Source of the DNA: Candidatus Krumholzibacteriia bacterium
Lineage (GTDB): Bacteria; Krumholzibacteriota; Krumholzibacteriia; JAJRXK01
DNA length: 64,000 bases
Assembly: GCA_041484665.1 (NCBI GenBank)
Contig: JBGPIA010000004.1
Coordinates: 160,001 to 224,000 of the forward strand
Reading direction: 5' to 3'
The translations under genes and the position numbers were made by a program. The notes beneath the pieces were generated by a model. It saw only the letters and a program-made list of their open reading frames with translations. It was not told the DNA's origin and did not search any database. Positions 1 to 31,957 of this stretch are shown piece by piece. Every line of letters starts with the position of its first letter. Position 1 is the first letter of the stretch.

Positions 1-708
1 ATGCATGAGCGCCACGACCAGGGGCGGGATCTCCAGGCGGTGGATCAGATTGTCCAGCACGGTCTGTAGGTTTGCGTACCTGAGGTAATCGCCGCCGTCG
101 TGCACCAGCAGCAGCGGATAGCGTCGCGTCCGCCGCAGGCGCGCGGGCAGATAGAGCGTGACCGCGCGGTCCTCGCCCAGTGCGCGGCTGCGCACCACCA
201 GCTCCTCGAGCGTGCCGGGGCGCGACTCGGGGTCCGGCCGCGTCCACTCGGGCGTCTCGTACCCGAGGGTGTGGACGACCGAGTTGGCACCGAAGGGATC
301 ACGTGCGCGCCGCGAGTTCAGCGGATCCTCGATCCACTGGGACTGGCCGTTGGCGAGGACCTCGAGCTTGTACTCCACGCGCGAGTTCTCGGGCAGCTCC
401 AGCACCAGCGCCCACAGGTCCGTGTCAGCGACGCGCTCGAAGGGCTGCGACGAGGGCAGACCGAAGACCCAGTGTCGCAGGTTCACCGCGTCGGCCTGAC
501 CACGGTAGGCGAACGTGCAGCGCGGCCCCTCGACCAACGGAAAACTGTGGCTGCGCAGGAACGCGTCGATCGCCGCGCCGTCGAGCGGGAGGCGCTCCTT
601 CAGCTCATCGATGGCCAGCCGGGGGACGGCGGCCACGGTGCCGGCGAGTCCGGCCCGCTGTCGGTAGATGGCCCACGGCACGTACCCGGGCCCGGCGTCC
701 AACCTCAC
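1..708 (-). CDS. Fes-like (enterochelin esterase family) alpha/beta hydrolase with N-terminal E-set/CBM48-like domain; 3' end runs off the window
   Basis: Not in the ORF track. Manual minus-strand translation gives ...FPLVEGPRCTFAYRG...LWALVLELPENSRVEYKL...IEDPLNSRRARDPFGANSVV...RAVTLYLPA...YPLLLVHDGGDY...VLDNLIHRLEIPPLVVALMH. The GTG at 708 overlaps the upstream stop (GTGA); alternative GTG at 717. Confidence 0.85.
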   Translation of the reverse strand, partial: MRLDAGPGYVPWAIYRQRAGLAGTVAAVPRLAIDELKERLPLDGAAIDAFLRSHSFPLVEGPRCTFAYRGQADAVNLRHWVFGLPSSQPFERVADTDLWALVLELPENSRVEYKLEVLANGQSQWIEDPLNSRRARDPFGANSVVHTLGYETPEWTRPDPESRPGTLEELVVRSRALGEDRAVTLYLPARLRRTRRYPLLLVHDGGDYLRYANLQTVLDNLIHRLEIPPLVVALMH

Positions 709-1811
709 CCAGCGCACGCCGCCTCCATCTGGGCCAGGGCGCCCTGGGGCGTCAGCCGCTGGATCCCGGGTCCGCCCGTCCACTCACCGGCGCGCCACGT
801 CAGGCGCGCGCCGTCCTCCATGGCCACGCAACAGAGCGGCGCGAACCGGCGCGCAAAGCGCGCCACGCGCGCCGGGTCGTCCAGACGCAGCCGGCGCCGC
901 GCGTGCGGCAGGGGCACCACGCCGCGGCACAGTGCCAGGCCGAAGTCGAACACCTCGGCGTTGCCCGGTCCCTGCGGCGGGTTGTCATGGAACAGCACGA
1001 TGCGCTCGCTGATCGCCATGGCGCCGGCGGACCAGGCGAAGACCGGCCGCGCCTGCCCGCCCGAGCGCGCGTGTCCCTGGTCCTGCTCGTCGAGCAGCTC
1101 CGCGACGCCCAACAGGCGCAGTCGGTTGAGCAGCAGCGCAATGTGGCCCCCGGCGATGGCCAGCGCCGCGCAGCCGTCAAGCTGGCGCGCGATCTCCGTC
1201 CGCTCGCTGGCAACCGCGTTGCGCTCGCGCGGGCGCAGGCGCGCATCGAACTCGGCCTGGACCGCCACCACACGCTGCAGATAGGAGTCATCGAGGGCGT
1301 GGAGCGCGTCGAGGGACGCGTCGCGCTCCGGCTCGAGCAGAACCGGATCACCCTTGTGGCGCAGCAGGTCCATCACGGCATCCATGGCGTGCGCGAGCCG
1401 GACGTTGTACAGCTCGCGCAGCTCGCGCAGGCGCTGCTGGCGCTCCCGGTGCGCGGTGGCAAGCTCGCGGTCGCGGGCGAAGATGCGCTCGGCGCGTTCG
1501 TAGAGGCGCAGGTTGATGCCGCGCCCGCCCAGGTGCTCGTGGAGCTCCTGGTCCTCGGCCTCGCGGTCCTGCCAGCCGGCCGTGATCGTGGCGATCGGGC
1601 CGTCGACGCCCAGCGCGTCGACGGCCTGGATCAAGGTCGGCGTGAGGCGCTGCGGACCAAGCAGCACGATGGCGCGTTGCGTCACGACCGCAGCGTCGTG
1701 ACTCGCGCCCCCGTCGTGGTTGGTGCCCAGGTCGCGGCCCGTGCGCTGGCCGCGGTTCTCGCCGTCACCGCCACCGGCGCGCCGCCGCGACCCGCGTGCC
1801 GGCCCGCTCAC
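705..1811 (-). CDS. Peptidase S51 / cyanophycinase-like (class I GATase fold) serine hydrolase
   Basis: IATITAGW, LAIAGGH, nucleophile motif AWSAGAMA and a PLPH His motif. The GTG at 1811 overlaps the upstream stop (GTGA); alternative start 1685. Confidence 0.75.
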   Translation of the reverse strand: MSGPARGSRRRAGGGDGENRGQRTGRDLGTNHDGGASHDAAVVTQRAIVLLGPQRLTPTLIQAVDALGVDGPIATITAGWQDREAEDQELHEHLGGRGINLRLYERAERIFARDRELATAHRERQQRLRELRELYNVRLAHAMDAVMDLLRHKGDPVLLEPERDASLDALHALDDSYLQRVVAVQAEFDARLRPRERNAVASERTEIARQLDGCAALAIAGGHIALLLNRLRLLGVAELLDEQDQGHARSGGQARPVFAWSAGAMAISERIVLFHDNPPQGPGNAEVFDFGLALCRGVVPLPHARRRLRLDDPARVARFARRFAPLCCVAMEDGARLTWRAGEWTGGPGIQRLTPQGALAQMEAACAG

Positions 1812-3031
1812 TGCGCTCGCACCTTCACGGTCCGGCCGGCGGAATCGAGCATTCCGCGCAATGTGTCGTAGTCGGGATGGCGCATGCGGATCCAGGCATT
1901 GGCCATGTACCCCGCCTCGATCGGCTGGGTGGCGGTGCCCGCCGGCGGGAGGTGCGCATCCACGATCCATTCACCGTGGGCGCGCTGGATCGCCTCAAGG
2001 CCCTCGTAGCCCGTGATGCAGCCGTCGCGGTCGGGGCGCAGGGCGATCATGCCCGCCGCGAAGCGCCGCGTAGGACGCTGGCTCGGCCGGCCGTGCGCGA
2101 TGCACATCGCCCATTCCCGGTAGAGGTCCATCTCGTTGGCCGCACAGTATAGGTCCCAGGCGCGCACACCTGGCGGCCGGCAGCCGATCTCGCTGAACTT
2201 CAGCCCCTTGGGCCCGTAGAACCACTCCATGTGCGTGGCCGAGGTCCCGATGCCCAGCGCGTGGATGACCCGCCGGCCCAGCTCCTTCACCTCGGCGTAG
2301 GCCGGGGCGGTGTCGATGCGGTTGGTGGTGATGAACTGCGGCGAGATCCAGCGCGTGCGCATCGCCTCGAGCACGTTGGGGTAGTAATGCGTGGCGAACT
2401 CGTGCACGACCTCGCCGTCGATCGCCAGCGTGTCGTAGAACGCCTCGTGCCCCTCGATGAACTCCTCGACGGCCACCGAGCGGCCGTGGTCGACGCCGGC
2501 CAGGTGGATCACCTCGCGCAGGTCGTTGTCGTTCTCCACGCGATACGTGCCCGAGGCCCCGGCGGCATCGCGCGGCTTGACGATGAGCGGGTAGCCCACC
2601 TGGCGGGCGAAGGACCAGACGAGGTCGGCGCGGTCGGCGCCCGTGGACTGCGCGCACGGGATGCCCGCCTCCCGCAACACCTGCTTCATGGCAGGCTTGT
2701 CGCGGCAGAGGAATGCCGTACGCACGCTGGTGCCCGCGATGCCGCACGCCTCGCGCACGCGGGCGATGGGCATGATGTGGGCTTCGACGCTGGCCTCGAG
2801 GCGGTCAACCGGCGTGCGCTCCTGGATCCAGCGGACCTTCTCGGTCATCGCGCCCTCGTCCACGACCGAGCCCACCCGCTCGTAATGGACCATCCAGCGC
2901 CTCAGGTCGTCGCCGAGTGCCTCCGGCGGCCGCTCGCCGATGCCGGTGACCCGGACGCCGGCCTCGAACAGGCCGCGCACGAACTCCCGCTGGTTGGCGG
3001 GGAAGACGGGCTCGACGAAGACGACGTGCAT
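1808..3031 (-). CDS. ATP-grasp domain ligase (paralog 1)
   Basis: CRDKPAMK, GYPLIVKPRDAAGASGT, VEEFIEG, THMEWF, EIGCRPPG. Start trimmed to the ATG at 3031 (MHVVFVEP). Confidence 0.9.
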   Translation of the reverse strand: MHVVFVEPVFPANQREFVRGLFEAGVRVTGIGERPPEALGDDLRRWMVHYERVGSVVDEGAMTEKVRWIQERTPVDRLEASVEAHIMPIARVREACGIAGTSVRTAFLCRDKPAMKQVLREAGIPCAQSTGADRADLVWSFARQVGYPLIVKPRDAAGASGTYRVENDNDLREVIHLAGVDHGRSVAVEEFIEGHEAFYDTLAIDGEVVHEFATHYYPNVLEAMRTRWISPQFITTNRIDTAPAYAEVKELGRRVIHALGIGTSATHMEWFYGPKGLKFSEIGCRPPGVRAWDLYCAANEMDLYREWAMCIAHGRPSQRPTRRFAAGMIALRPDRDGCITGYEGLEAIQRAHGEWIVDAHLPPAGTATQPIEAGYMANAWIRMRHPDYDTLRGMLDSAGRTVKVRAQ

Positions 3032-3166
3032 GGCGCATCTCTCGGTTGAAGGGCCGGCCACGCCTTGGTGGACCGCCGCAAGCCTGAGTCTAGCGCCCAG
3101 GACACGCCAGGCAAAGCGCAGCCGGTCCAGCCGCGGAAAGCGCCGCGGCGGAGTGCCTGTTCGAGC

Positions 3167-3195
3167 TCGACATATTGATGTCATATTGATATGCT
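3167..3195 (+). promoter_or_regulatory. vapBC promoter with overlapping operator repeats
   Basis: TCGACA(3167)-N17-TATGCT(3190), 7 nt before the ATG at 3203. CATATTGAT occurs twice (3171, 3182), and CATAT-TG-ATATG (3182-3193) is palindromic. Confidence 0.65.
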
Positions 3196-3202
3196 TCAGT
3201 GC

Positions 3203-3454
3203 ATGCGCACGACGATCCGGATGGACGACGCCCTTTACGCGCGGGTGAAGGAGCTGGCCGCGCGCACCGGCCGCACGGTCACCTCGGTCATCGAGGACGC
3301 CCTTCGCGAATCGCTCGCCCGTCGGACGGTTGCGCGCCAGCGAGAGCGGATCGAGCTGCCCACCTTCACGGGCAGCGGCGTGCAGCCGGGCGTGGACCTG
3401 GACAGCTACGCCTCCCTCCTGGATCTGATGGAGGGCAGCGGTGGTCCTCGTTGA
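3203..3454 (+). CDS. vapB: Ribbon-helix-helix (CopG-like) antitoxin VapB
   Basis: MRTTIRMDDALYARVKELAARTGRTVTSVIEDALRESL; overlaps the PIN toxin gene. Confidence 0.88.
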   Translation: MRTTIRMDDALYARVKELAARTGRTVTSVIEDALRESLARRTVARQRERIELPTFTGSGVQPGVDLDSYASLLDLMEGSGGPR

Positions 3455-3869
3455 CGCCAACGTGCTGGTCTACGCCCATCGCGGCGAGTGCGCCCGCCAC
3501 GCCGAGTTCCGCGGCTGGCTGGAGAACCTCATCAATGGCGCCGAGGCGTTCGGGATCGCGCCCGATCTGCTCGCCAGCTTCGTGCGGATCGTGACCCATC
3601 CGCGGATCTTCAGCCCACCGACACCCCTGGACTCGGCGCTGGCGTTCTGTGCTGCAGTCCTGCGCTCGGACTCCTGCGTGGTCGTCCGGCCCGGCGCGCG
3701 TCACTGGCAGATCTTCACGGACCTGTGCCGGTCCGCCGATGTGAAAGGCAACCTGGTCGCCGATGCCTACCTCGCCGCCCTGGCTGTCGAGTCGGGCAGC
3801 GATCTGGTCACGACCGATCGCGATCTCAGCCGTTTTCCCGGCCTGCGCTGGCACCCTCCGCTGCGGTGA
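3441..3869 (+). CDS. vapC: PIN-domain toxin VapC
   Basis: LVDANVLVYA...GNLVADAYLAALAVE...TTDRDLSRFPGL, with the PIN acidic residues. Confidence 0.92.
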   Translation: MVLVDANVLVYAHRGECARHAEFRGWLENLINGAEAFGIAPDLLASFVRIVTHPRIFSPPTPLDSALAFCAAVLRSDSCVVVRPGARHWQIFTDLCRSADVKGNLVADAYLAALAVESGSDLVTTDRDLSRFPGLRWHPPLR

Positions 3870-3931
3870 GCCGCGGCGGTCCCGTCCGGGTGCCTCGCAC
3901 GCGTTCGCCGGCGAAGCGCGGCTGCCCCCGC

Positions 3932-5635
3932 TCAGCGCAAGCCGGCCAGACTCCGGTACAACTCGACATACGCCTGCGCGCGCCGCTGCCACGAGAAGTC
4001 CTGCGCCATGCCGTTGAGCATCAGCGTGCGCCAGGCCCCCTGGCCGGCCGCGGCGTGCGGCATGCCGCCGGGCAGGACGCGGGGGGCGGCGGCGTGGGCG
4101 GCGTCCCCTGCGTCAGGCGGCTGCGCGCCGGTGGCGGCGGCCGCAGCGCCGGACGAGTCGGCGTAGAGGTCCAGTGCCGCCTCCAGCGCCCAGCGCGCCG
4201 CCTTTGGAGTGTAGTGTTCGAAGACGACGCCCGTTCCCCGCCCGCTCTCTGGATCCCACAGCGTCACCGTGTCGGCCAACCCCCCGGTCCGGCGCACGAT
4301 CGGCACGGTGCCGTACATCTGGCTGTACATCTGATTGAGACCACACGGCTCGTACTGGCTGGGCATCAGGAACATGTCGGCGCCGGCCTCGATCCAGTGC
4401 GCCAGCTCGTCGTGGAAACCCCGGTAGAAGCTGAGCTTCTTCGGAAAGCTGCGCTGCAGCGCGCTGAAGAACTCCTCGTAGCGCACCTCGCCGCTGCCCA
4501 GCACCGCCACGCGCAGATCGCGCTCCGCGAGCACTCCGGGTAGCACGTCGTGCAGCAGGTCGAAGCCCTTCTGCCCCGCCAGGCGCGAAACGATACCCAG
4601 GAGCGGCACGCCCTTCACGTAGCGCAGGCCGAGCCGGTTGAGCAGCAGCTCCTTGTTCTTCTCCTTGCGCCACAGGCTCTTCTCGCTGAAGCGGAACGGG
4701 ATGAGCTTGTCGGTGCGCGGGTTCCACTCCCGGGTGTCCACTCCGTTGAGGATGCCGACGAGGGCATCGCGCCGACTCTGCAGCAGCTCGTGCAGGCCGT
4801 ACCCGTAGGCCGGCGTCTGGATCTCCCGCGCGTAGGTCGGGCTGACGGTCGTCAGGGCGTCGGCGTGCAGCAGACCCGTCTTGAGGAAGTTGATCTTGTG
4901 CGCGTTGAGGTCCGCACCGTCGAGCACACGCTCGGCCCATTGGTAGAGCCCCGTGTCGGGCAGGATCGACGCCGCGAACGTGCCCTGATAGCCGAGATTG
5001 TGCAGTGTCAGCACCGTGCGCGCCTGGCTGAACAGCGTGTCCCAGGCGTACAGCGTCTTCAGGTAGACCGGCAGCAGCGCCGTCTGCCAGTCGTTGCAGT
5101 GGACGACGTGCGGCGCGAAGCGCATGCGCTGGCAGCTCTGCAGCGCGGCGTGGCACAGCAGCAAGAAACGCAGGTGCTCGTCCTGGTCGTTCGTATAGAT
5201 GCCTGGACGGGCGTACAAGTGCGGACAGCGGACGAAAAAAACGGTCGGAGCGGGTGCGCGCTCGGCCGCTGCCTCGATCGCGCCAGCGGCGGGGCTGCCG
5301 GCCTCGCTCGCCGCGGCGGCCGCGGCCGATCGCAGTGGGCGCCGGCTGGCTGGCAGCGGCATCATGAACAGCGAGAAGACGAGCGTCCTGCCGCCGAGCT
5401 GGACCGGGACGTCCTGGACGTTGTCCACCGGCTGCAGCAGCATCTGGCCGGCAGCGGCGCGCCCGGGCTTTCCCCATTCGTTCTCGATGCGGGCGTAGAG
5501 CGGCAGGAAGATCCGGACGTCGTGCCCCAGCGCGTGGAGCGCCCGCGGCAACGCAGCGGCAACGTCTCCCAGCCCGCCGGTTTTGGCGAAGGGGGCGACC
5601 TCGGAGGCCACGAAGCAGATGCGCAGGGGATCCAT
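3932..5635 (-). CDS. glgA: Glycogen synthase (GT5)
   Basis: SEVAPFAKTGGLGDV, HCNDWQT, TLHNLGYQG, MPSQYEPCGLNQMY, RRTGGLADTV. Confidence 0.96.
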   Translation of the reverse strand: MDPLRICFVASEVAPFAKTGGLGDVAAALPRALHALGHDVRIFLPLYARIENEWGKPGRAAAGQMLLQPVDNVQDVPVQLGGRTLVFSLFMMPLPASRRPLRSAAAAAASEAGSPAAGAIEAAAERAPAPTVFFVRCPHLYARPGIYTNDQDEHLRFLLLCHAALQSCQRMRFAPHVVHCNDWQTALLPVYLKTLYAWDTLFSQARTVLTLHNLGYQGTFAASILPDTGLYQWAERVLDGADLNAHKINFLKTGLLHADALTTVSPTYAREIQTPAYGYGLHELLQSRRDALVGILNGVDTREWNPRTDKLIPFRFSEKSLWRKEKNKELLLNRLGLRYVKGVPLLGIVSRLAGQKGFDLLHDVLPGVLAERDLRVAVLGSGEVRYEEFFSALQRSFPKKLSFYRGFHDELAHWIEAGADMFLMPSQYEPCGLNQMYSQMYGTVPIVRRTGGLADTVTLWDPESGRGTGVVFEHYTPKAARWALEAALDLYADSSGAAAAATGAQPPDAGDAAHAAAPRVLPGGMPHAAAGQGAWRTLMLNGMAQDFSWQRRAQAYVELYRSLAGLR

Positions 5636-5703
5636 GCGTCGATCGACGGTCCACGCCGGCGCGGCAGCCGTGCCGCGAGCTCGACGATCGTACCATTGCC
5701 CCG

Positions 5704-8700
5704 CTACGCGTGCACCTGCTCGCGGTAGGCGGCGAGCACCGGACGCAACCGGTCCAGCTCGCCCTGGAGAGTGAGCAGCGCTGCGGGCGCCTCCTCCAAC
5801 TGCCCTTGCCGACCCATCGTCTCCAGCCGCCGCGCCGCCTCGGTTGCCGCCCGCGCGGCGAAGTTGCTGACCGCACCCTTCAGCTGGTGGGCCGCCGCGT
5901 GGAGCGCGATCGGGTCGCCGCGCTCGACCGCGGTCCGCACCGCCGACAGACGCTCGTCGACGCCGTCGAGGAAGGCCGTCGCCAACTCGGCCAGCAGCGC
6001 GCGATCGCCGTCTAGGCGAGCGAGTAACTCCGCGGCGTCGACCGCCGGTGGCGCGACGGCCGTTGCTTCGGCGTTCGTGGCAGTGGCGTTCTCGTCCATG
6101 GCGTTCGTCCCTTCGGGGTGGGTTGCCGCGGTGTCTGTCGCGTCGGCGGTCGTTGTGGTGACGCTGGCTGCCGTGGCGCTGATTGCTGCGTGGTTTGTTG
6201 GCGCGGCGTGCTGGGACGACGCAAGCACTTCATCGATCACCGCGAAGAGCGCCCGCGAGCGGACCGGCTTGGCGATGTACGAGTCCATGCCGGCGTCCAG
6301 GCACGCCTCGCGATCGCCGTGCATCGCGTTCGCCGTCAGAGCAATGATCGGAAGGTGGCCCCCCGTGGCAGCCTCGCGCTCGCGGATCCGGCGGGCTGCC
6401 TCGGTGCCGCTCATGACGGGCATCTGCATATCCATCAGGACGACGTCGTAGGTCGCGCGCTCGAGCGCCTCGAGAGCGCGCTGGCCGTTCTCGACGACCT
6501 CCACCCGGTGGCCCGCTTTCTCCAGCAGACGCGCCGCCACCACCTGGTTGACCGGATTGTCCTCGGCCAGCAGGACGCGCAGCGGCTCCCGTGCGCTGCC
6601 CCGCTCGGGCGCGGGAGCGGCCCGCTCGTCGGGCCAGCGCTGCGGCTGTTCGAGGGCCTGCAGCACGGCATCGAGCAGGTTCGATGCACGGTAGGGCTTC
6701 GGCAGCCACGACACCCCCAGCTCGCGCGTCTGACGAGCGGCGCGCATGTCGCCCGCGGGGATCAGCAGCAGGAAGTTGTCCGGCGGCAACGCACACTGTT
6801 CTGCGATGGCACGGGTCGCCGCCAGGCCCTCCCGCCCGGGGAGATTCACGTCGACGAGCACCAGTCCGAATGGGCGATCCTCCCGCCGTGCCAGCTCGAT
6901 CGCGGCGCACCCCGCGGCGGCGTCGGCCACGAACGTCGCGTCGATCCGCCAGCCACCCATGAGCTCCTGCAGCACGGCGCAGTGCGACGGATGGTCCTCC
7001 ACCACCAGGATGGGCGTTCCGGCGAGGGCGGCCTGCGAGCGCGACGCATCCAGCGTCGCGGATTCGCCGGGCGTGGGTTCCTCCTGAGCAGGGGCAGGGG
7101 CGGCCGGTCCGAAGCGCGCGGTGAAGTGGAACGTGCTGCCCCTGCCCAGCTCGCTCTCGACCCAGATCGCCCCACCCATCAGCTGCGTGAGACGCCGCGA
7201 GATGGCCAGGCCCAATCCGCTACCGCCGTAGCGGCGCGTGATCGAGGCGTCCCCCTGGGAAAAGACCTCGAAAACGCGGTCGCGCAGCTCGGCGGCGATT
7301 CCGATCCCAGTATCGCGCACGGAGAAGCGAAGGGTTGTCGCCCCGCTCGCCTCCTCGCCCCCCGCAGCAGCGTCCCGTGGGCCGCGCCCCGCTGGATCGG
7401 CATCCGGATCGGAACCCCCCTTTAGACCGGGCGTGGATTGCGCCGGCGGCTCGAGCCGTGTGTCGACGAACACCTCGCCCTGCTCGGTGAACTTGATGGC
7501 GTTGCCGATCAGGTTCACCAGGATCTGGCGCAGGCGCCCGGGATCGCCCACCACCCTGGCGGGCACGTCGGACCGCACGCGCGCCCCGATCTCCAGCCCC
7601 TTGCCGTGCGCCCGCACGCCCAGGATGCGCAGGGACTCCGCTACGGTCTCGCGCACGTCGAACTCCACCGCCTCCAGCTCCAGCCGGCCCGCCTCCACCT
7701 TGGAGATGTCGAGGATGTCGTTGATGAGCGTGAGCAGCCCGTCGGCCGAAGACTCCACCAGCTGGAGGTACTCGCGCTGCTCGTCGCTGAGAGCCGTGCC
7801 CAGCACGAGCTCGGTCATGCCCACGATGCCGTTCATCGGGGTGCGGATCTCGTGGCTCATATTGGCCAGGAACTCGGACTTTGCCCGGGCGGCGGCCTCG
7901 GCCTTCTCCTTGGCGGTACTGAGGTTGGAGTTGAGGGCGCGCAGCTCGCCCGTGCGTTGCGCCACCTGCTCCTCGAGGCTCGCCCGGTGGCGCTGGAGCT
8001 CCCTGTCACGCGCCTGGACGATGGCGAGCATCTCGTTGAACCCTGCCACCAGCAGGCCCAACTCGTCGCGGCTCTCACCCCGCACGCGCACCGAGTAGTC
8101 CTTCTTCGTCGACACGCGCTTCATGGTCTGCGACAGGCTGACCAGCGGGCCAGTGATCCGGGAGACCAGGCGCCGTGCGCCCACGAAGGCAGAGACGGAA
8201 AGCACCAACAGGAGCGCCAGGGACATCGACGCAACACGGCGGACCCACGCCGTCTCGTCACTGAGATTGCTGCGGATGAACACCGTTCCGATGGGCTCGC
8301 CCTGGAAAACGACGGTGCGGAAGACCTCGATGCGCCCGAGCACACGCCGGTGGCCGTTGGGCTGAGGCGGCGGGGGCGCCCAGGCAGCCTCGCCGGCCGT
8401 TCGCACGTAGGTTCCCAGCGGGGACGTGTCGATCCGGTAGACGCAGGCCGCGTCCACGCTCTCCTTCACCTGCAGGGCGGAGAGCGTCTCGATTGCCGCC
8501 CTGCGGTCGTCGAATTCGAGGGCGGCGGCGCAGTTGCGCCCGATCACGTCGGCCAGCGTGGTCAGGTCCCGCACGAGCGTGCGGTGCAGCATGACCCGCT
8601 CGCTGGCGACGAAGGCCGTGAACGCCAGCAGCAGGACGGCGCTACTGATCCCAGCGGTCAGGAACGTGAGCTTGTGGGTGATCGATGACTCGCGTAGCCC

Positions 8701-8706
8701 GCGCAT
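5704..8706 (-). CDS. Hybrid sensor histidine kinase (periplasmic sensor-HAMP-HisKA-HATPase-REC-REC-Hpt)
   Basis: Two TM segments, HAMP ([14 protein letters not shown]), [31 protein letters not shown], two receiver domains, Hpt AHQLKG. Alternative start 8721. Confidence 0.93.
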
Positions 8707-8707
8707 C

Positions 8708-9415
8708 TCAGTCCTGTCCAAGCGCTTCCCGGCCCCGCCGCACGCGGGCCAGGCGCAAGAGCTGGGAGCTGATTCCCAGCTTCGCGCGTTCGGCGTTCTC
8801 CACGTCGATCTCGAAGCGGAGCTTGTTGTCCTGGAAGAAGAAGCCGAGCACCCCCCCCGATTCCGTGAACTCCTCGGCCTCGCCCACGGTCAGCACGGGG
8901 AGCCCGGCGAGCCCCGCGAGCAGGGGTTTCATCCAGTCCTGAGGCGCGCCGCCGATGAAGAGGACGTCGCACGGCTGCGTGACCTGGGGGCCGGCAAAGC
9001 GTTGGACGTGCAGCGTCCGCCCATTGCTCTGTTTGCCCTCGATCGACGCGAGCGTTGCGTAGAGGGAATCGTCGGCCACCACGCCGATGGTGATGGCGCG
9101 CGAGCTGTCGCCGGCCGCCCCGGCAGGCCATTCCACGAACCTCGTGAAGTTGAACAGGTACGCCGCCATCAGCTGGGATTTCGAGGTGACCCTCGCCGTG
9201 GCCGGCGGCGCGGGCTCCGCGGACGCGCACGGCGCGAGCCCTGCCAACGCGGCCAGCAGCAGCACCACCTCGCCCACCACCGTCGCCGCCGCCTTGAGGG
9301 GCATCCCGCGCAAGGGCGCAGCGTGGCCCAGCATGACCGAGGGCGAGAGCGGCGCCGGCCGTGGTGGGCGAGCCGGGCATCCCGGCGGCTGGGCGCTGAT
9401 GCGGCGTGCGCTCAT
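8708..9415 (-). CDS. YfiR-family (DUF4154) periplasmic protein
   Basis: [51 protein letters not shown]. The true start may lie downstream. Confidence 0.88.
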
Positions 9416-11490
9416 CAGAATTGCAGGGTCGCCTGTCCGAAGACGGTGCGCGGGATCTCGGTCGGGTACTGCAGCAGATCGGTGCCGGCCTCACGATGGC
9501 GGCCCTGCAGCGCATTCGTCACGCCGGCGGAGAGCGAAATCCCCGGCACGAGAGCGAATCCAAGCCGGCTGTCGAGCCGGACGTAGTCGTCCACCTGCCA
9601 CGCGGAGACCTTTCCGACGTAGTAGGTCGCCAGGTCGAGTTGGAGACGGTCGGTGACATCGAGGTAGGAGCGCAGGTTGAGCTGGAAGCGTGGCGCCGCG
9701 GAGGACGTCTGTACGCTCCGCTGGTCCGCCGATGACGGGTCGAGCACGAAGTGCATCTGCAGCCAGGTTGCTGCCCCGGCGAGCCGCCAGGTGCGCAGAG
9801 CGTGCCACTCGAAGGCGGCCTCGGCGCCGTACGTGTCGCCCCGCAGCTTGTTCTCCACGTAGATGGGGAACACCGTGTGCGCCGGTGATGGCGTGCCCTC
9901 CTGGAACGGAGCCCCCGGTTCTGTCGTCTGCAGGTTGTCGTAGCGATTGAAGAATGCCGTCAGGTCGAGCGAGATGTCGGAAGCGGGCGACGTGCGATAG
10001 CCCACCTCGTAGGCCGTCAGCGCCTCCTGCTTCACATCGGGGTTGCCGAAGAAACCGGACACCCCAGTACCGCCTCCGGGGAGCGGGAAGGCCGGGAGAT
10101 TGATGCGCGCGTGGCGTTCCATCTGCGACGGAGTCCGGACTGCGTGCGAAAGCGCGGTCCACGCGCTCGCGTGGGTCCCGATGGCCCAGAGCAAGCGGAC
10201 ATTGGGCTGCACCGCGGAGCCGGTCTCCTGCTCGTACTCGAACTTCGAGCCCAGGGTGAGCCTCAGCTTGTCGTGCAGCAGCGGGAGCATCGCCTGCCCG
10301 AAGACGTTGAACAGATCGTCATCCTGCGCAGCTCCGTCGGTGCTGATCGTCCAGGTGTCGCCGATCCCGAACCACTCGTGTCGATAGCCGAGGCCCCACA
10401 GCAGCTCGTTCCCCGCGCCCAGTCGGAGACGGTGCTGGAAATCGAAGTTGAGGATGTCCATCGACTGGCGCGCGAGCACCTCGTCGCGCTCGAGCCCCTC
10501 GTAGGAACCGACGAGACTCAGCTCGGACGTGGGTGAGATCGTGTGATCCCAGCGCCCCAACGTCGACCAGCCCCACACGTTCGCGCGGTCCAGGATGGGC
10601 TGCTGGTAGGGCGGGTCCAACAGTGAGAGCGACTGCATGCTGTTGATCCTGCCCCGATAGCCCTCACCCGTGAATTCCACGGCGTCGCGCCGCGTCGGCT
10701 GCCAGTCAATGCGGGCCCGCCCACGTCCCATCCGCCAGGTGTCGGGCGTGTCGACGCCGGCGGCGTCGACCAGGCCATCCTGCTCGAAGTACTTCGCGTA
10801 GACGCGATAGGCCGCCGCGCGTCCCATGGTGCCGCCCGCGTGCGCCACGCCAAACGCCGGGTCGTCCGGCCCACCACCCCCCTCGACGCTGTACTCGCGG
10901 GCCGGGGTGGCCTTCTTCGTGATGACGTTGATCACACCATTCACCGCGTTGGCGCCCCACAACGTGCCACCCGGGCCGCGGACGACCTCGATGCGCTCGA
11001 TCTCGGAGACCGGCAGGTCCTGCATCTCCCAGTACACGCCCGAGAAGAGCCGCGTGTACACCGAACGGCTGTCGATCAGCACGAGCATCTTGTTCGCCCA
11101 GCGCCAATTGAATCCGCGCGCGCTGATCGCCCACTTGCTGGCGTCGATACGAGCCACTTCCAGCCCCGGCGCCAGTCGCAGCACGTCGGGCAGGCTGCGC
11201 GCCCCGCTGCGCCGGATGTCCTCCTGCGTGATGACGTAGACGGCCGCGGGAGCGTCGGAGATCTTCTGCCGCTTCTTCGACACGGAGGTGACCTCGATGT
11301 TCATGAGGTCCTCCAGCGGGAGATCGCTGAGTGCCTGGACTCCGGCGGAGTCGGCTCCCGCGCCCGATTGCACGGATGTCTGCTCCGCGGCCGCGGTGCC
11401 CCCCGGCGCAACGGACGCGCCTGCCAGGATGGAAGAGACGAGCAGCCCGCTGACCGTGCGGGCGCATGCCGTGATTCGGATCTGCCGCAT
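9415..11490 (-). CDS. TonB-dependent receptor
   Basis: Signal peptide, plug domain (LEDLMNIEVTSVSKK, IERIEVVRGPGGTLWGANAVNGVINVITK), C-terminal Phe. Confidence 0.93.
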   Translation of the reverse strand: MRQIRITACARTVSGLLVSSILAGASVAPGGTAAAEQTSVQSGAGADSAGVQALSDLPLEDLMNIEVTSVSKKRQKISDAPAAVYVITQEDIRRSGARSLPDVLRLAPGLEVARIDASKWAISARGFNWRWANKMLVLIDSRSVYTRLFSGVYWEMQDLPVSEIERIEVVRGPGGTLWGANAVNGVINVITKKATPAREYSVEGGGGPDDPAFGVAHAGGTMGRAAAYRVYAKYFEQDGLVDAAGVDTPDTWRMGRGRARIDWQPTRRDAVEFTGEGYRGRINSMQSLSLLDPPYQQPILDRANVWGWSTLGRWDHTISPTSELSLVGSYEGLERDEVLARQSMDILNFDFQHRLRLGAGNELLWGLGYRHEWFGIGDTWTISTDGAAQDDDLFNVFGQAMLPLLHDKLRLTLGSKFEYEQETGSAVQPNVRLLWAIGTHASAWTALSHAVRTPSQMERHARINLPAFPLPGGGTGVSGFFGNPDVKQEALTAYEVGYRTSPASDISLDLTAFFNRYDNLQTTEPGAPFQEGTPSPAHTVFPIYVENKLRGDTYGAEAAFEWHALRTWRLAGAATWLQMHFVLDPSSADQRSVQTSSAAPRFQLNLRSYLDVTDRLQLDLATYYVGKVSAWQVDDYVRLDSRLGFALVPGISLSAGVTNALQGRHREAGTDLLQYPTEIPRTVFGQATLQF

Positions 11491-11677
11491 GGCGTTCTCC
11501 CGGTTCGGGACGGATCGGGCCCTCTTCCGGTTTCGGCAGCCATGGAACGGGATTGAGCTGTTTCCCAGGGAGGTCCGTGACCGTACCTCGTTGGTGCGGG
11601 CCGACTTCGGCAGATCTTGCAGCCAGGGGAAGGCACGCGGGCGCCGGCGGGTGGTGGAATCCCTGCGCAGCCCCGGC

Positions 11678-11683
11678 TAGAAT
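11678..11683 (+). promoter_or_regulatory. -10 box of a probable leaderless transcript for the ATP-grasp pair
   Basis: TAGAAT lies 6 nt before the ATG at 11690, with no Shine-Dalgarno in between. Confidence 0.5.
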
Positions 11684-11689
11684 GGCGCC

Positions 11690-12919
11690 ATGCGGACGTC
11701 GCTGAATGTGATTTTCACCGCGCCCTTCTTCGCGCCGACCACGCTGCGCTTCATCGAGTCGGTGGCCGATCTGCCCGGCGTGCGCCTGCGGCTGGTCAGC
11801 CAGGACCCCCTCGACCGACTCCCCCACGGCCTGGCCGTCAAACTGGCTGCCCACCATCGGGTCGAGGACGGGCTGAACGCCGATCAGATCGGCGTCGCCG
11901 TCGTCAAGCTCTCGCAGCGGCTGGGTGCCGTCCACCGCCTGCTGGGCACCCTCGAGGAGCTGCAGATTCCCCTGGCCGAGATCCGCCAACAGCTGCGCAT
12001 CGACGGGATGGGCGTCGACGCCGCGCGCAACTTCCGGGACAAGTCGCAGATGAAGGACGTGCTGCGCGCGGCCGGCATTCCGTGCGCCCGCCACCAGCTC
12101 GCGACCAGCTCCCCGCAGGCCCTGGAGTTCGTGCAGCAGATCGGGCTGCCGGTGATCGCCAAGCCGCCCGCCGGGGCGGGCGCGCGCAACACGTTCCGTG
12201 TGGAGCAATTCACGCAGCTGCAGGAGCTGCTGGCGGCCATGCCGCCGTCACCGGAGCGGCCCCTGCTCGTCGAGGAGTTCATCGTCGGCGACGAGCACTC
12301 CTTCGACAGCGTGATGCTGGCGGGCAAGCCGGTGTGGCACGCTGTCAGCCACTACTTCCCGGGCCCCCTGACCGTGCTCGAGAACCCGTGGATCCAGTGG
12401 GTCGTGGTCTACCCGCGCGAGGCCGAGCACGCGCGCTACTCGGACATCCGTGCGATCGCCTTCAAGTCGCTGCAGGCGCTGGGGATGGTGACGGGACTCT
12501 CGCACATGGAGTGGTTCCGCCGCCGCGACGGGAGCGTGGCCGTCTCCGAGGTGGGGGCGCGCCCGCCAGGGGCCCAGTTCACCACGCTGATGTCCTACGC
12601 CAACGACTTCGACCTGTACGCGGCGTGGGCGCGGCTGATGGTCAAAGACGAGTTCGTCCCACCGCTGCGCAAGTACGCCGCAGGCGCCGCCTTCCTGCGT
12701 GGCCAGGGCGAGGGCCGCGTCGTGGCGATCCACGGCTTGGACGAGGCGCAGCGCGACGTGAGCGGCCTGGTCGTCGAGGTGAAGCTGCCGCGCGCGGGGC
12801 AGGCTGCATCGAGCACCTACGAGGGCGACGGATACGTGATCGTGCGGCACCCCGATACCGAGGTGGTCGAGATGGCGCTGCGGCGCCTCGTCAGCAAAGT
12901 GCGCGTCGAGCTGGGCTAG
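11690..12919 (+). CDS. ATP-grasp domain ligase (paralog 2)
   Basis: FRDKSQMK, IAKPPAGAGARNT, VEEFIVG, SHMEWF, EVGARPPG. Confidence 0.9.
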   Translation: MRTSLNVIFTAPFFAPTTLRFIESVADLPGVRLRLVSQDPLDRLPHGLAVKLAAHHRVEDGLNADQIGVAVVKLSQRLGAVHRLLGTLEELQIPLAEIRQQLRIDGMGVDAARNFRDKSQMKDVLRAAGIPCARHQLATSSPQALEFVQQIGLPVIAKPPAGAGARNTFRVEQFTQLQELLAAMPPSPERPLLVEEFIVGDEHSFDSVMLAGKPVWHAVSHYFPGPLTVLENPWIQWVVVYPREAEHARYSDIRAIAFKSLQALGMVTGLSHMEWFRRRDGSVAVSEVGARPPGAQFTTLMSYANDFDLYAAWARLMVKDEFVPPLRKYAAGAAFLRGQGEGRVVAIHGLDEAQRDVSGLVVEVKLPRAGQAASSTYEGDGYVIVRHPDTEVVEMALRRLVSKVRVELG

Positions 12920-12946
12920 CGGTCAACGCAGTCCGGCGGAGGCACG

Positions 12947-14170
12947 ATGAGCCGTAATGTGTTGATGCTCTCCCCGGGGTTCCCCCCGGAGATGCCTTTC
13001 TTCACGCGCGGGCTTTCCCGCGTGGGCGCGCGGGTGATCGGTTTGGGGGACCAGCCGGTGGGGTCGCTGGCGCCCGTGGCGCGCGAGCACCTCGCCGACT
13101 ACATCCAGGCTCCCATCGCCGACGAGCGGGCCGTGCTGGCGCAGGTGCGCCAGTACCACACGACGCGCGCCCGCTTCGATCGCGTGGAGTGCAACTGGGA
13201 GCCGCTCATGGTGTTGGCGGCCCGGCTGCGCGAGTCGCTCGGCGTGCCCGGGATGGGCGTCGAGCAGACGATCCTCTTCCGGGACAAGGAGCAGATGAAG
13301 CAGGTGCTCGACGCGGCCGGCATCCGCACGCCGCGCCACGCCAGCGCGAAGAGCGTGGGCGCGGTGCTGGAGGCCGCCGCCTACGTCGGGTATCCGCTGA
13401 TCCTCAAGCCGATCGCCGGCGCCGGCTCGAAGGACACCTACCGGGTCGAGAGCCGCCACGAGCTCGACTTGACCCTGCGCCGCATGGGCCACGTGGAGGA
13501 GGTTAGCGTCGAGGAGTTCATCGAGGGCGAGGACTGGACCTTCGACACGGTGTGCGCCGGCGGCCGCATCGAGTTCTTCAACCTGTGCTTCTATCGGCCG
13601 CGGGCGCTGTTGGCGCGCCAGCACCAGTGGATCAGCCCGCAGACCATCGCGATCCGCAACGTCGACCAGCCCGACCTGGAGCCCGGCCGCACGATGGGCC
13701 GCGCGGTGCTGAAAGCGCTGGGCTTCCAGACCGGATTCACCCATATGGAGTGGTATCGCAAGCCCGATGGCGAGGCCGTCTTCGGCGAGATTGCCGCGCG
13801 GCCGCCCGGCGCGCACACCGTGGACCTGATGAACTTCGCGTGCGACATCGATCTCTACCAGGGCTGGGCCGAGGCCGTCTGCAACGGGAGCTTTACGCAG
13901 CGCGTCGAGCGCAAGTACAACTCGGCGTGGATCTTCAAGCGGGCGCAAGGCTCGGGGCGCATCCAGCGCGTCGAGGGGTTGGGGCCACTGATGGCCGAGT
14001 TCGGCGAGTGGATCGTGTGGGTGGATCTGCTGCCCGTGGGCGCACCGCGCCGCGACTGGATCCAGACTCTCATCAGCGACGGGATGCTGATCGTCCGCCA
14101 CCCGGACCTGAGCCGCTGCATGGAGATCGCCGATGCGGTGGGGACCAGGCTGCAGATCTGGGCGGGATGA
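12947..14170 (+). CDS. ATP-grasp domain ligase (paralog 3)
   Basis: FRDKEQMK, GYPLILKPIAGAGSKDT, VEEFIEG, THMEWY, EIAARPPG; GGAGG RBS. Confidence 0.9.
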   Translation: MSRNVLMLSPGFPPEMPFFTRGLSRVGARVIGLGDQPVGSLAPVAREHLADYIQAPIADERAVLAQVRQYHTTRARFDRVECNWEPLMVLAARLRESLGVPGMGVEQTILFRDKEQMKQVLDAAGIRTPRHASAKSVGAVLEAAAYVGYPLILKPIAGAGSKDTYRVESRHELDLTLRRMGHVEEVSVEEFIEGEDWTFDTVCAGGRIEFFNLCFYRPRALLARQHQWISPQTIAIRNVDQPDLEPGRTMGRAVLKALGFQTGFTHMEWYRKPDGEAVFGEIAARPPGAHTVDLMNFACDIDLYQGWAEAVCNGSFTQRVERKYNSAWIFKRAQGSGRIQRVEGLGPLMAEFGEWIVWVDLLPVGAPRRDWIQTLISDGMLIVRHPDLSRCMEIADAVGTRLQIWAG

Positions 14171-16386: not shown

Positions 16387-16807
16387 GACCAACTCCGGGG
16401 GAAGAGCGGGAGGGGGAGGCGGGCGGAGCGACGAGGTCGCGGGGCTCCGCTGCCGCGCCCAAAGCGAGCGGGCGGCGCGGCGAGCGCCTGGGACTCTACG
16501 CATGCCGGGGGGTCCGATCAACCGGCAGGTCGCAGGCCCGGCCGCGCGCGGCCGGCGCTTGGTTGGCGTCCGGCCGGTGTTCTGGTGGTGTCCGGCCGAG
16601 CTGCGGGTGGCGATCGGAGCACGAGAAGCCGGCGCCGCGGCTTGCCGTGACCCTCGCGCCCGCGGACGAGTTGGCTACCTTCCAGGGTGCAAACCTGGGG
16701 ACCGCCTGGAGCCTTGAGCACCACGCCCCCCTTGCGCACCGACGCCCGCCGTCCCGTCCGGGCGGCGGCGTGGAGCGTCGCGCTGTGACCGGGAGGAGAA
16801 ACGAGCC

Positions 16808-24793: not shown

Positions 24794-25167
24794 CCGTCCA
24801 CCCTCCGGGTCGACATCAGGGAAGGAGAAAGATAACACGATCGCCCCCACATCACATCTGGGGATCTTGACGGCTCGGGGCCATCTGGCGCATCGGTTGA
24901 AGGACACCGGATGGAACGACCTCGTCGGCCGGCGCGTGCGCACGCTGCTGAACCAGGCACTGTCTGCGTGGCGTGGCGCTGGGTGGCGAAACGGGCGCGA
25001 TGACGCGGGCAGGCCGGTGGGGTCTGGCCGGCCCCCGTTGTGCTGCGGGCAGGGACCTCCCCCCTCGTGGGGAGGGTCGCCCTCCCGCGGCGGGCGGGGG
25101 AAGGCCGCTGGGGCGGCCGGTTCGCTGGCAGTCGCAACGTGGGGGCGGTCCCCCCCGCACGCGGCGG

Positions 25168-29602: not shown

Positions 29603-31957
29603 TCAATCTGCCGTGCGTTGCAGGAACACGATCGACAGGGATGGCAGCACCAGCGAGATCGCGAAGGGCTGCCCCTGTGCGGGCTCGGGCCGCGCAGGCA
29701 ATGGCTGCGGGTTGCCCGCGCCGGATCCCCCGTAGTCCACGCGATCGCTGTTGAAGGCCTCCGCCCAGGAGCCCGCCTGCGGAACGCCGACCACGAAGCT
29801 GTCGTGGCGGCGCGTCTGGAAGTTGGCGATGGCCACCAGCTGCGAGCGCGGGTCCTTGCCACGGCGCACGAAGGAGAGAACGCTGCGCGCCGCATCGTCG
29901 GCTTCGATCCACTGGAAGCCCTTCCAGTCGCCGTCGTTCTCCCACAGCGCGGGCTGCGACTGGTAGAACTGGTTGAGCTCGCGGACGTAGAGCTGCATCG
30001 CCCGATGCAGCGGGAAGTCCAGCAGCAGCCAGTCGAGCTGGCGGTCGTGGCTCCACTCGATGAACTGGCCGAGCTCGCCGCCCATGAACAGCAGCTTCTT
30101 GCCCGGATGCGCCGCCATCCAGCCGTAGAGCAGCCGCAGGTTGGCGAACTTCTCCTCGTAGCTGCCGGGCATCTTGGACAAGAGCGAGCGCTTGCCGTGC
30201 ACGACCTCGTCGTGGGAGAGGGACAGCACGAACCGCTCGCTGAAGGCGTACATCATCGAAAACGTGAGGCGGTCGTGCAGCTGCGGGCGCTGGGGAGGCG
30301 GCGTGCGCATCACGCGCAGCACATCGTTCATCCAGCCCATGTTCCACTTGTAGTCGAAACCCAGTCCACCCTCGGAGACTGGGTGCGACACCTTCGGCCA
30401 GGCCGTCGACTCCTCGGCGAAGGTCAGCACGCCCGGACACTCGCGATGGACCAGGGCGTTGAACTCCTGCAGGAACGCCATCGCTTCCAGGTTCTCGCGA
30501 CCGCCCAGCTTGTTGGGAATCCACTCCCCCGGCTTGCGCGAGTAGTCGAGGTAGAGCATCGAGGCCACCGCGTCCACGCGTAGCCCGTCGATGTGGAAGC
30601 GCGAAAGCCAATACAGGGCGTTGCTCAGCAGGAACGAGCAGACCGTGTGGCGCCCGAAGTTGAAGATGAACGTGCCCCAGTCCTGGTGCAGTCCTTGGCG
30701 CGGATCGGCGTGCTCGTAGAGGTGCGTGCCGTCGAAGAACGCCAGCCCATGGCCGTCGCGGGGAAAATGCGCTGGGACCCAGTCGAGGATGACGCCCAGG
30801 CCCGCCTGGTGCGCTGCGTCCACGAACCAGCGGAAGTCGTCCGGCGGCCCGAAGCGCGAGGTCGGTGCGTAGTATCCCACCGTCTGGTAGCCCCACGAGC
30901 CGTCGAAGGGATGCTCGGTGATGGGCAGCAGCTCCAGGTGGGTGTAGCCCATCTCCTTCGCGTAGGGCACGAGCTGCTCGGCCAGCTCGCGGTAGGTGAG
31001 CCAGCTGCCGCTCGCGGGGTCAATGGGCGAAGCCGCGCGCGTGGGTGGAGTGCTGGCCTCTGAAGCGCTGGCCGAAACGCCGGGCCCGAAGCCCACCGCC
31101 GCCGGGGCGGCCGCAGCCGGCGCGCCCGACGCCTGCGGGAGGCGTCGCCACGATCCCAGATGCACCTCGTAGATCAGGAGCGGCCTGTCGGACGACTGCC
31201 GCCGGGCGCGTTCCTGCATCCACGCCGCGTCGCCCCAGGTGTAGTCGTAGCTGTCCCAGACGATCGAAGCCGTGTTGGGGCGCCGCTCCATGAAGAACCC
31301 ACACGGATCGGCCTTGTCCGACTGGGGATGGCCCGGCAGCTTCGTGCGCAGTGCGTACTTGTAGAGCGCCCCGCGCTCTACGGCGGGGATGAAGATCTCC
31401 CAGACTCCGCTGTGGCCGCGCGGCTGCATCATGTGCCGGCGCGCGTCCCAGCGGTTGAAGCTCCCGATCACGCTGACGCGCTCGGCGTTGGGGGCCCAGA
31501 CGGCGAAGTCGACGCCGCTGACCCCCTCGTGCACGAGCTCGTGCGCGCCGAGTCTCTCGTAGAGCCGGACGTCGCTCTTCTCCAGGAAATCGCGCAGGTC
31601 GTTCTCGGAGAGCCGCGGTGGGAAACGGTAGGGGTCGTCTTCGACGGTCACCGTGCCGTCGGCGGCGGTGATGCGCAGGCGATAGGCAAACGAGGTCGAC
31701 TCCCCAGGGAAAACCGCCTCGAACACGCCGCCGGCGTGGAGGAGATCCATGGGGTGCGGCACCCCGCCGTGAGCGCTGCCGTCGCCCGGCGTGCGCTCCC
31801 GCAGCACCTCGACCGCGCGCGCACCGGGCACGAGCGCGCGAATGGCGATGGCGGCAGTGCCATCCACCTCCACTTTCTGCAAACCAAGGACGTCGAACGG
31901 AAGTGAGACGCTGGCGTCCGCGAGAGCACTCAACACCTGTGGGTGCAGTGTTGCCAC
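29603..31957 (-). CDS. glgB: 1,4-alpha-glucan branching enzyme (GH13)
   Basis: FAVWAPNA, IYEVHLGSW, HPFDGSWGYQ, DGLRVDAVASMLY, AEESTAWP, LSHDEVVHGK. Confidence 0.96.
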   Translation of the reverse strand: MATLHPQVLSALADASVSLPFDVLGLQKVEVDGTAAIAIRALVPGARAVEVLRERTPGDGSAHGGVPHPMDLLHAGGVFEAVFPGESTSFAYRLRITAADGTVTVEDDPYRFPPRLSENDLRDFLEKSDVRLYERLGAHELVHEGVSGVDFAVWAPNAERVSVIGSFNRWDARRHMMQPRGHSGVWEIFIPAVERGALYKYALRTKLPGHPQSDKADPCGFFMERRPNTASIVWDSYDYTWGDAAWMQERARRQSSDRPLLIYEVHLGSWRRLPQASGAPAAAAPAAVGFGPGVSASASEASTPPTRAASPIDPASGSWLTYRELAEQLVPYAKEMGYTHLELLPITEHPFDGSWGYQTVGYYAPTSRFGPPDDFRWFVDAAHQAGLGVILDWVPAHFPRDGHGLAFFDGTHLYEHADPRQGLHQDWGTFIFNFGRHTVCSFLLSNALYWLSRFHIDGLRVDAVASMLYLDYSRKPGEWIPNKLGGRENLEAMAFLQEFNALVHRECPGVLTFAEESTAWPKVSHPVSEGGLGFDYKWNMGWMNDVLRVMRTPPPQRPQLHDRLTFSMMYAFSERFVLSLSHDEVVHGKRSLLSKMPGSYEEKFANLRLLYGWMAAHPGKKLLFMGGELGQFIEWSHDRQLDWLLLDFPLHRAMQLYVRELNQFYQSQPALWENDGDWKGFQWIEADDAARSVLSFVRRGKDPRSQLVAIANFQTRRHDSFVVGVPQAGSWAEAFNSDRVDYGGSGAGNPQPLPARPEPAQGQPFAISLVLPSLSIVFLQRTAD

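Follow-up and report, generated by a model that had tools for sequence, protein, structure and literature searches.

The window analyzed here is a 64,000-nucleotide stretch of a Candidatus Krumholzibacteriia bacterium (contig JBGPIA010000004.1, positions 160,001 to 224,000), and it carries a module of ATP-grasp ligases, esterases and an S51-fold protein beside a glycogen synthase gene, glgA. The module is conserved, and its link to glycogen genes is real and repeated. We propose that it builds a short non-ribosomal peptide, which is reversibly esterified to cytoplasmic alpha-glucan (peptidyl or aminoacyl esters on glycogen), an explanation that we regard as tenable though still short of probable. 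The parts belong to known families, while for the module as a set no characterized counterpart was found. The original prediction, made from the left end of the window, knew of no characterized pathway with this gene set, and a literature search over titles and abstract openings likewise found it undescribed. A 2009 survey by Iyer, Abhiman, Burroughs and Aravind, which is said to predict peptide-making operons mixing ATP-grasp ligases, COOH-NH2 (GCS2) ligases and peptidases and possibly lists such operons by prediction, lay outside the reach of this search.

Organization of the module

The window starts inside the esterase 1 gene, and the minus-strand operon extends four genes beyond its left edge. 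The genes of the module and the glycogen genes of this genome are the following.

1..708, minus strand, continuing past the left edge to C4:159485: esterase 1 (Est1), with an N-terminal CBM20/CBM48/Fes-N-like domain and a PF00756 alpha/beta-hydrolase domain
705..1811, minus strand: S51-fold (cyanophycinase/PepE-like) protein; Pfam S51 match with E-value 2.4e-5, helical insertion of about 110 residues
1808..3031, minus strand: AG1, L-amino-acid-ligase-type ATP-grasp protein, 407 amino acids (aa); anchor gene of the 80 loci compared below
3932..5635, minus strand: GlgA of the cassette-linked clade; TIGR02095 at 508 bits, cut-off 328
11690..12919, plus strand: AG2, L-amino-acid-ligase-type ATP-grasp protein, 409 aa; LAL_C2 match just below the Pfam cut-off
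12947..14170, plus strand: AG3, L-amino-acid-ligase-type ATP-grasp protein, 407 aa; ATPgrasp_N match above the Pfam cut-off
29603..31957, minus strand: GlgB branching enzyme, the sole glgB found in the genome
C4:158033-159427, outside the window, same strand as Est1 and downstream of it: AG4, divergent ATP-grasp protein
C4:157302-158036, outside the window, same strand as Est1: esterase 2 (Est2), small PF00756 esterase; its start overlaps the AG4 stop
C4:155163-157082, outside the window, same strand as Est1: GCS2-CBS ligase (GCS2 with CBS domains); PF04107 match above cut-off
C4:154238-155161, outside the window, same strand as Est1: AstE/AspA-like peptidase
C5:21223-22656, on another contig: second glgA of the genome, beside glgC and GH57 genes

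In the complete set, the genes for GlgA, AG1, the S51-like protein, Est1, AG4, Est2, GCS2-CBS and AstE lie on one strand, with AG2 and AG3 diverging. The original prediction described three ATP-grasp paralogs of about 410 aa with common motifs, and GTGA overlaps that link the AG1, S51-type and esterase genes. The three open reading frames lie where it had placed them, the motifs RDKxxMK, HMEW and ExxxRPPG are invariant in AG1-AG3, and the stop/start overlaps can be read from the sequence at 1808-1811 and 705-708. Its placement of glgA, vapBC and glgB also stands; missing from it were a 6-kb block before AG2 and AG3 and the four operon genes beyond the edge. The system is thus larger than it had described, with up to five ligases and up to four hydrolase-fold proteins.

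Conservation and linkage to glycogen genes

The scan of GTDB genomes yielded at least 607 stretches, at least 399 of them encoding relatives, and the best 80 loci were kept. These carry AG1 orthologs at 63-71% identity, and so represent the closest relatives rather than a random sample, with kin that are not independent. They come from eight named phyla: Myxococcota (35), Planctomycetota (15), Gemmatimonadota (7), Acidobacteriota (7), Pseudomonadota (6), Actinomycetota (3), Eiseniibacteriota (1) and Binatota (1), with five loci unassigned. Many are incomplete, and 46 are at least 19 kb long. Within 10 kb of AG1 we find the S51-like gene in 56 loci, Est1 in 55, AG4 in 44, AG3 in 42, Est2 in 40, AG2 in 34, GCS2-CBS in 19, AstE in 8 and a formylglutamate-amidohydrolase-like gene in 7; all three ligase paralogs are present in 32. 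Among 40 relatives of the genome studied here, two carry the ligase trio. The cultured Enhygromyxa salina SWB007 is a carrier (locus L073). Plasmid searches returned seven distant matches to AG1 and zero to AG4. Neither a transporter family nor an exporter was seen among the 26 representatives of recurring neighbors that were scanned, nor a small conserved carrier reading frame in the clustering, which covered frames of at least 90 aa.

The formylglutamate-amidohydrolase-like gene (Pfam match below cut-off; positions 17177-18097 of L053, and six other loci) is found in stretches none of which has the AstE-like gene, for which it may substitute.

The glgA gene lies within 10 kb of AG1 in 54 of the 80 loci (33 of the 46 long ones), and in 39 it directly precedes AG1, its end being less than 400 base pairs from the AG1 start. 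Any glycogen gene is present in 58 loci (36/46 among the long ones); beside the cassette there are glgB in 10, glgP in 9, glgC in 6 and malQ in 4. By chance, glgA would be expected in this proximity in about 0.5% of cases, given a span of 21 kb and 22 matches to glgA in 15 genomes that total 98.7 Mb. The neighborhood comparison that the original prediction had suggested for glycogen genes agrees with it on this link, and the excess, together with the GlgA trees, rules out chance adjacency.

In the FastTree phylogeny of 88 GlgAs, 47 of the 49 cassette-linked proteins form one clade (SH support 100) that spans six named phyla and the lineage studied here. Two partial rows were left out of this tree, and four low-identity GlgAs of a Gemmatimonadota GH57 block, labelled separately, fall outside the clade. 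IQ-TREE with 46 chosen rows gives the same split (SH-aLRT 100), and in the trees the second GlgAs of cassette-bearing genomes lie outside the cassette-linked clade. Distances of AG1 and GlgA are correlated (Spearman 0.58, n=45, permutation p 0.001). Among 15 cassette-bearing genomes, seven have two glgA matches, four the linked copy only, three an unlinked one only, and one a non-clade copy beside the cassette; hence the clade GlgA is in many genomes, though not in all, additional to another copy, and it is not a strict requirement of the cassette. The linkage extends to glycogen genes of different ancestry: in Enhygromyxa, a non-clade glgA together with glgC; in four loci from Gemmatimonadota, a block of GH57, glgA and glgB genes; and in L003 and G021, glgB by itself.

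As in the GlgC-GlgA-GlgB pathway, the linked GlgA of this genome passes TIGR02095 and has the ADP-glucose and catalytic motifs, and in the linked proteins generally the motifs are intact (KxGGL 45/47, QKG 47/47, EPxGL 46/47). Unlike the classical enzymes, the linked ones form a separate clade with some fixed changes of its own, and we know of no ligases or esterases in the classical glycogen pathway. In one Acidobacteriota genome (G047; L046 5800-10000, and L126) a second, unlinked glgA is whole, while the one linked to the cassette is fragmented and contains an internal TAG; the break is either real decay or a sequencing error.

Ligases

AG2 and AG3 are 32% and 36% identical to AG1, and a fourth copy of this family is absent from the genome, where the next match has an E-value of 2e-14, compared with 1e-207 or better for the three. 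AG1, AG2 and AG3 form separate clades (SH 100, 100 and 99, with 16 rows each); since each of these crosses phyla, a recent local triplication is ruled out. Many residues are fixed within a paralog, including a column beside the invariant N-domain Glu and a C-terminal loop; judging by work on L-amino-acid ligases, we take such columns to be specificity positions.

The closest solved structures are the L-amino-acid ligases 4WD3 (which we take to be RizA), 3VOT and BacD 3VMM; the top solved matches of AG1-3 have E-values of 1e-39 (to 4WD3), 5e-30 and 5e-24. AG1-3 share with them the three-domain ATP-grasp layout with L-amino-acid-ligase-type N- and C-terminal domains (ATPgrasp_N and LAL_C2 matches) and the aligned N-domain Glu, HxE and ExxxRxxG motifs; E83, the two ATP-binding Lys (K112 and K152), H267, E269, E281, R285 and G288, aligned to 4WD3 and 3VOT, are invariant in 48 of 48 sequences. 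AG1-3 are old, distinct clades of the L-amino-acid-ligase type with intact motifs, and ATP-dependent dipeptide formation from free L-amino acids is predicted for them. Characterized L-amino-acid ligases serve secreted antibiotics; here, in contrast, three old paralogs stand beside esterases and glycogen genes, with no exporter among the recurring neighbors scanned.

AG4 is highly conserved and shows weak matches to the Ddl/RimK/LysX families, with distant likeness to Ddl. It has at least 7,431 homolog clusters (7,431 of 8,000 scored candidates matched), every source name given among its best 120 homologs is "hypothetical protein", and the ESM Atlas cluster containing it has 8,601 members, putative ATP-grasp proteins. 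In the GCS2 protein, E48, E50, E79 and E86 are kept in 20/20 sequences and R320, E335 and R337 in the 19/19 aligned, presumably as metal-binding Glu and catalytic Arg residues.

Esterases

The catalytic triads of both esterases are invariant, S261/E332/H361 of Est1 in 36/36 sequences and that of Est2 in 41/41. The Est1 model (pLDDT 90.7) has an Ig-like N-domain and an alpha/beta-hydrolase domain with a Ser-Glu-His triad, a two-domain fold shared by the CBM48-CE1 feruloyl/acetyl esterases (wtsFae1A/B 6RZN, 6RZO and 8BBP; DmCE1B 7B5V) and by Fes (2B20, 3C87), which match about equally by E-value; polysaccharide de-esterases are among its closest folds. It differs from both groups in its 17-23% identity to them and in the absence of xylan-use and siderophore genes nearby.

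The N-domain alone has as its top solved match the starch-binding domain of Aspergillus niger glucoamylase (6FRV, E-value 0.008), and E576/K578/W590 of the latter align with E92/K94/W105 of Est1 (numbering derived from the 6FRV alignment). W543, K578 and W590 are named in PMC9069913 as key site-1 binding residues of the A. niger CBM20. W543 is outside the aligned stretch, and Est1 W60 is just a candidate counterpart. Pfam matches of this domain are weak, to CBM20 in 10 of 17 members (best E-value 9e-4) and to CBM48 in 5 of 17 (best 2e-4). The residues are frequent in AG1-type N-domains (K94 55/57, W105 47/57, W60 46/57, N122 53/57) and rare in actinobacterial ones (K94 3/18, W105 3/18, W60 2/18, N122 4/18). 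The N-domain appears to resemble starch-binding modules, with site-1-like residues kept in the glycogen-linked set and mostly lost in unlinked relatives; to the extent of this resemblance, the original pointer to glycogen-binding E-set domains is supported.

S51-fold protein

The model of the S51-like protein (pLDDT 92.4) has cyanophycinase as its best fold match (Foldseek E-value 2e-7, TM-score 0.44 by query length), and hhalign with 13 PepE-type proteins, after removal of the helical insertion, gives a probability of 97%. By profile alignment, the triad positions of the window copy are S224, H266 and D296 (Asp in the Glu column). Among orthologs, Ser or Cys is kept in 53/55, and the triad His and Glu only in 16/56 and 13/55; because of this, most members are unlikely to be canonical S51 peptidases, and the residue pattern indicates that in most of them the protein is likely a peptide-binding pseudo-peptidase. 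The conserved H186 and H238 could serve instead of the triad His. The window copy, with both Ser and His kept, could alone be active. In locus L069 the protein is fused in frame to Est1 (and in L005 both lie within a longer, possibly erroneous, reading frame), which points to a partner role with Est1.

The cyanophycin system (CphA1, CphB of the S51 family, and the pseudo-CphB 7UQV) resembles the module in having an ATP-grasp ligase beside an S51-fold protein in a storage context. The module differs from it in its ligases, which lack the Mur-ligase domain and have 407-409 aa compared with about 870 in CphA1, in the unconserved triad and the 110-residue helical insertion of its S51-like protein, and in the added pair of esterases and GlgA clade.

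Reduced versions and points against a glycogen role

A distant ATP-grasp subfamily (25-30% identity), found with a Peptoclostridium plasmid gene as the seed, gave 75 metagenome loci of Bacillota type. Est2 is adjacent to the ligase in 61 of them, and in 44 of the 45 that are at least 9 kb long, and a further esterase is present in 24. In the phylum to which an Acidimicrobiales genome belongs, 40 of the 297 genomes drawn carry AG4 (this count leaves out four unpublished matching genomes; including these, 44/301). In 20 actinobacterial neighborhoods picked from the AG4 matches, Est2 is present in 18 and Est1 in 17. Since the pairing persists where glycogen genes are missing, the constant unit is ligase plus esterases. 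By comparison of these versions, the one with AG1-3 has added glycogen genes and kept the starch-site residues, the core being older than the glycogen link.

The smallest arrangement, a minimal operon of an ATP-grasp gene and one or two esterase genes, is seen in low-GC metagenome contigs, many of them from gut samples (L136-L210; e.g. L196 8001-10735 and L157 8001-9935). In one actinobacterial locus (L229 8472-13500) Est1, AG4 and Est2 stand directly before glgA and glgC, and this Est1, in contrast to most that are unlinked, has retained K94 and N122.

Several observations weigh against a glycogen-directed role. Glycogen genes lie near the ligase and Est2 in only one of the 45 long Bacillota-type loci, and they are absent from 18 of the 20 actinobacterial AG4-esterase loci (near in 2/20), which rules out a universal glycogen link. 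As the reduced versions mostly lack glycogen genes, a linked glgA is not required for the core chemistry. The original idea of a ligase-hydrolase set tied to glycogen accordingly holds for one conserved module with a repeated link, and fails for most reduced versions. Within the GlgA clade there are three unlinked proteins from one related genus (L088, L094, L099), encoded right after glgB with the ligase trio absent, which are possibly remnants after cassette loss. Moreover, the correlation of AG1 and GlgA distances between phyla is just 0.13, and, the unlinked GlgAs having been sampled narrowly, dedication of the clade is suggested rather than shown. As for Est1, its best whole-length TM-scores are with Fes (0.68-0.72, compared with 0.55-0.59 for the CBM48-CE1 esterases), its N-domain matches Enterochelin_N in 17 of 17 members, and the residue contrast with the actinobacterial set is partly circular, because the profile was built from the AG1 set, and it includes kin that do not count as independent. 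L-amino-acid ligases, besides, normally form amides, not esters. Finally, PMC8040265 reports a lack of starch binding for the CBM48 domains found in CE1 esterases, which tempers the fold resemblance and sets them apart from Est1 with its CBM20 site-1-like residues.

Proposed mechanism and alternative explanations

Directly established are the gene content, its conservation, the intact motifs of ligases and esterases, and the existence of the GlgA clade; from these we infer all of the chemistry. That acyl-activating ligases come in obligatory association with enzymes of the esterase fold suggests a product joined by an ester bond; for the AG1-3 version, the presence of a glucan synthase and of starch-site residues suggests that the acceptor is alpha-glucan. 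GlgA and GlgB would make the alpha-1,4/1,6 glucan from ADP-glucose. With pocket residues fixed separately in each of them, AG1-3 would convert alpha-amino acids to acyl-phosphates and couple them, and AG4, together with the CBS-bearing GCS2 gamma-glutamyl ligase where present, would extend or cap the product. Est2, the constant ligase partner in every version, may then take the acyl group on its Ser and pass it to a sugar hydroxyl. Removal of the acyl group would fall to Est1, which its starch-site-like domain would direct to the glucan and which would have the peptide-binding S51-fold protein as its partner; recycling of the amino acids would be the task of the AstE-like peptidase. Which of the two esterases is the writer and which the eraser is a guess.

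A different product, the main rival to this proposal, is a real, if rather doubtful, possibility: the ligases may produce an oligopeptide or gamma-glutamyl peptide that stays free in the cytoplasm as a compatible solute or a reserve of nitrogen and is recycled by the hydrolases. The glycogen link would then reflect shared stationary-phase or stress regulation rather than chemistry in common. The profile membership of AG1-3 in the L-amino-acid ligase family, the GCS2 protein with its invariant catalytic Glu and Arg beside an AstE-like peptidase, the core versions without glycogen genes and the zero transporter families among the 26 neighbor representatives are all consistent with such a peptide. 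It leaves unexplained, however, the distinct co-travelling GlgA clade, retained as a second copy in 7 of 15 genomes, the two obligatory esterases in place of peptidases, and the retention of starch-site residues in the linked clade. If instead the acceptor were a protein, the ligases would attach a tag to GlgA, to GlgB or to a protein of the granule, or make a primer peptide from which the linked GlgA begins its chains, with the hydrolases reversing this. The RimK and LysX families, to which AG4 has weak matches, modify proteins, and glgA directly precedes AG1 in 39/80 loci; on the other hand, AG1-3 resemble ligases of free amino acids rather than of proteins, no small conserved carrier was seen among the clustered frames of at least 90 aa, and cassettes stand beside unrelated GlgAs or none, so that we consider protein tagging unlikely.

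A cyanophycin-like amino-acid polymer of high molecular weight, kept as a store alongside glycogen and broken down by the S51 protein, is very unlikely. It would agree with the number of ligases, with the S51 fold nearest to cyanophycinase and with Ser224 and His266 kept in the window copy, but the CphA architecture is absent (33-45 bits, with cut-offs of 850-877), the triad His and Glu are mostly lost in the orthologs, and to our knowledge esterases play no part in cyanophycin turnover. The synthesis/breakdown pair of the original prediction is abandoned on the same grounds, the ligases being of the single-domain L-amino-acid-ligase type. Repair or salvage, in which ATP-dependent activation and ester or lactone hydrolysis clear damaged or acylated sugars and amino-acid adducts in glycogen granules, could account for the widespread, context-independent unit of a ligase and two esterases; up to five ligases with distinct fixed pockets fit stepwise synthesis better, and we consider repair highly improbable.

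Local insertions and other features

The remaining genes discussed here are the following.

3191..3869, plus strand: vapBC (RHH antitoxin and PIN toxin); local insertion, outside the module
5704..11490, minus strand: CHASE8 hybrid histidine kinase, YfiR/HmsC-like protein and TonB receptor; local insertion, outside the module
14257-16521, minus strand: M61 glycyl aminopeptidase, between AG3 and glgB
18748-25381, minus strand: RND efflux system, between AG3 and glgB

The kinase-YfiR-TonB block of about 6 kb parts AG2 and AG3 from glgA. In the relatives G002 and G021 the module is contiguous and glgB is directly beside AG3, with glgA abutting AG2 in G002; therefore vapBC, this block and the 15 kb that precede glgB were inserted locally, and the glgB gene probably once adjoined AG3. 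As members of the module, vapBC, YfiR, the TonB receptor, M61 and the transketolase-like and HerA-like genes were rejected, with zero query matches in the 80 loci; VapC is also unmatched in the cassettes of two relatives. Generic kinase matches are found in 14/80 loci.

The vapBC genes, on the opposite strand, separate glgA and AG1, a pair directly adjacent in many orthologous loci, and may uncouple glgA from the ligase operon here. Between glgA and AG2, the inserted genes for the CHASE8 hybrid histidine kinase, the YfiR/HmsC-like protein and the TonB receptor make up a three-gene signalling unit. Several proteins of this genome have insertions or tails rich in Ala, Pro and Gly: GlgA (3932-5635; 567 aa, compared with about 480 in orthologs), the S51-like protein, the linker of an MsrB-MsrA fusion (16808-17902) and the C-terminus of AG4 (L001 16033-17427).

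Implications

The fullest form of our proposal, possible but doubtful, is that of peptide-decorated glycogen in at least eight phyla, with a dedicated GlgA clade, up to five ligases, one esterifying hydrolase, and a starch-binding Est1 that would remove the peptide together with a pseudo-peptidase. This would be the glucan-directed branch of a wider ligase-plus-esterase acylation system that is also present in Bacillota-type and Actinomycetota genomes. If the product is a free peptide, the module would still represent a peptide pathway that has yet to be described, with four or five ligases that are new. Glycogen of bacteria is regarded as a glucose polymer without modifications. Reversible decoration of glycogen with amino acids or peptides would, if true, add to carbon storage a new layer, comparable with the one that phosphorylation of glucans provides in plants and animals; it would name a function for the second GlgA clade and give a role to the very large unannotated AG4 family, and the decorated glucan would be either a combined carbon-nitrogen store or the carrier of a mark that controls granule turnover.

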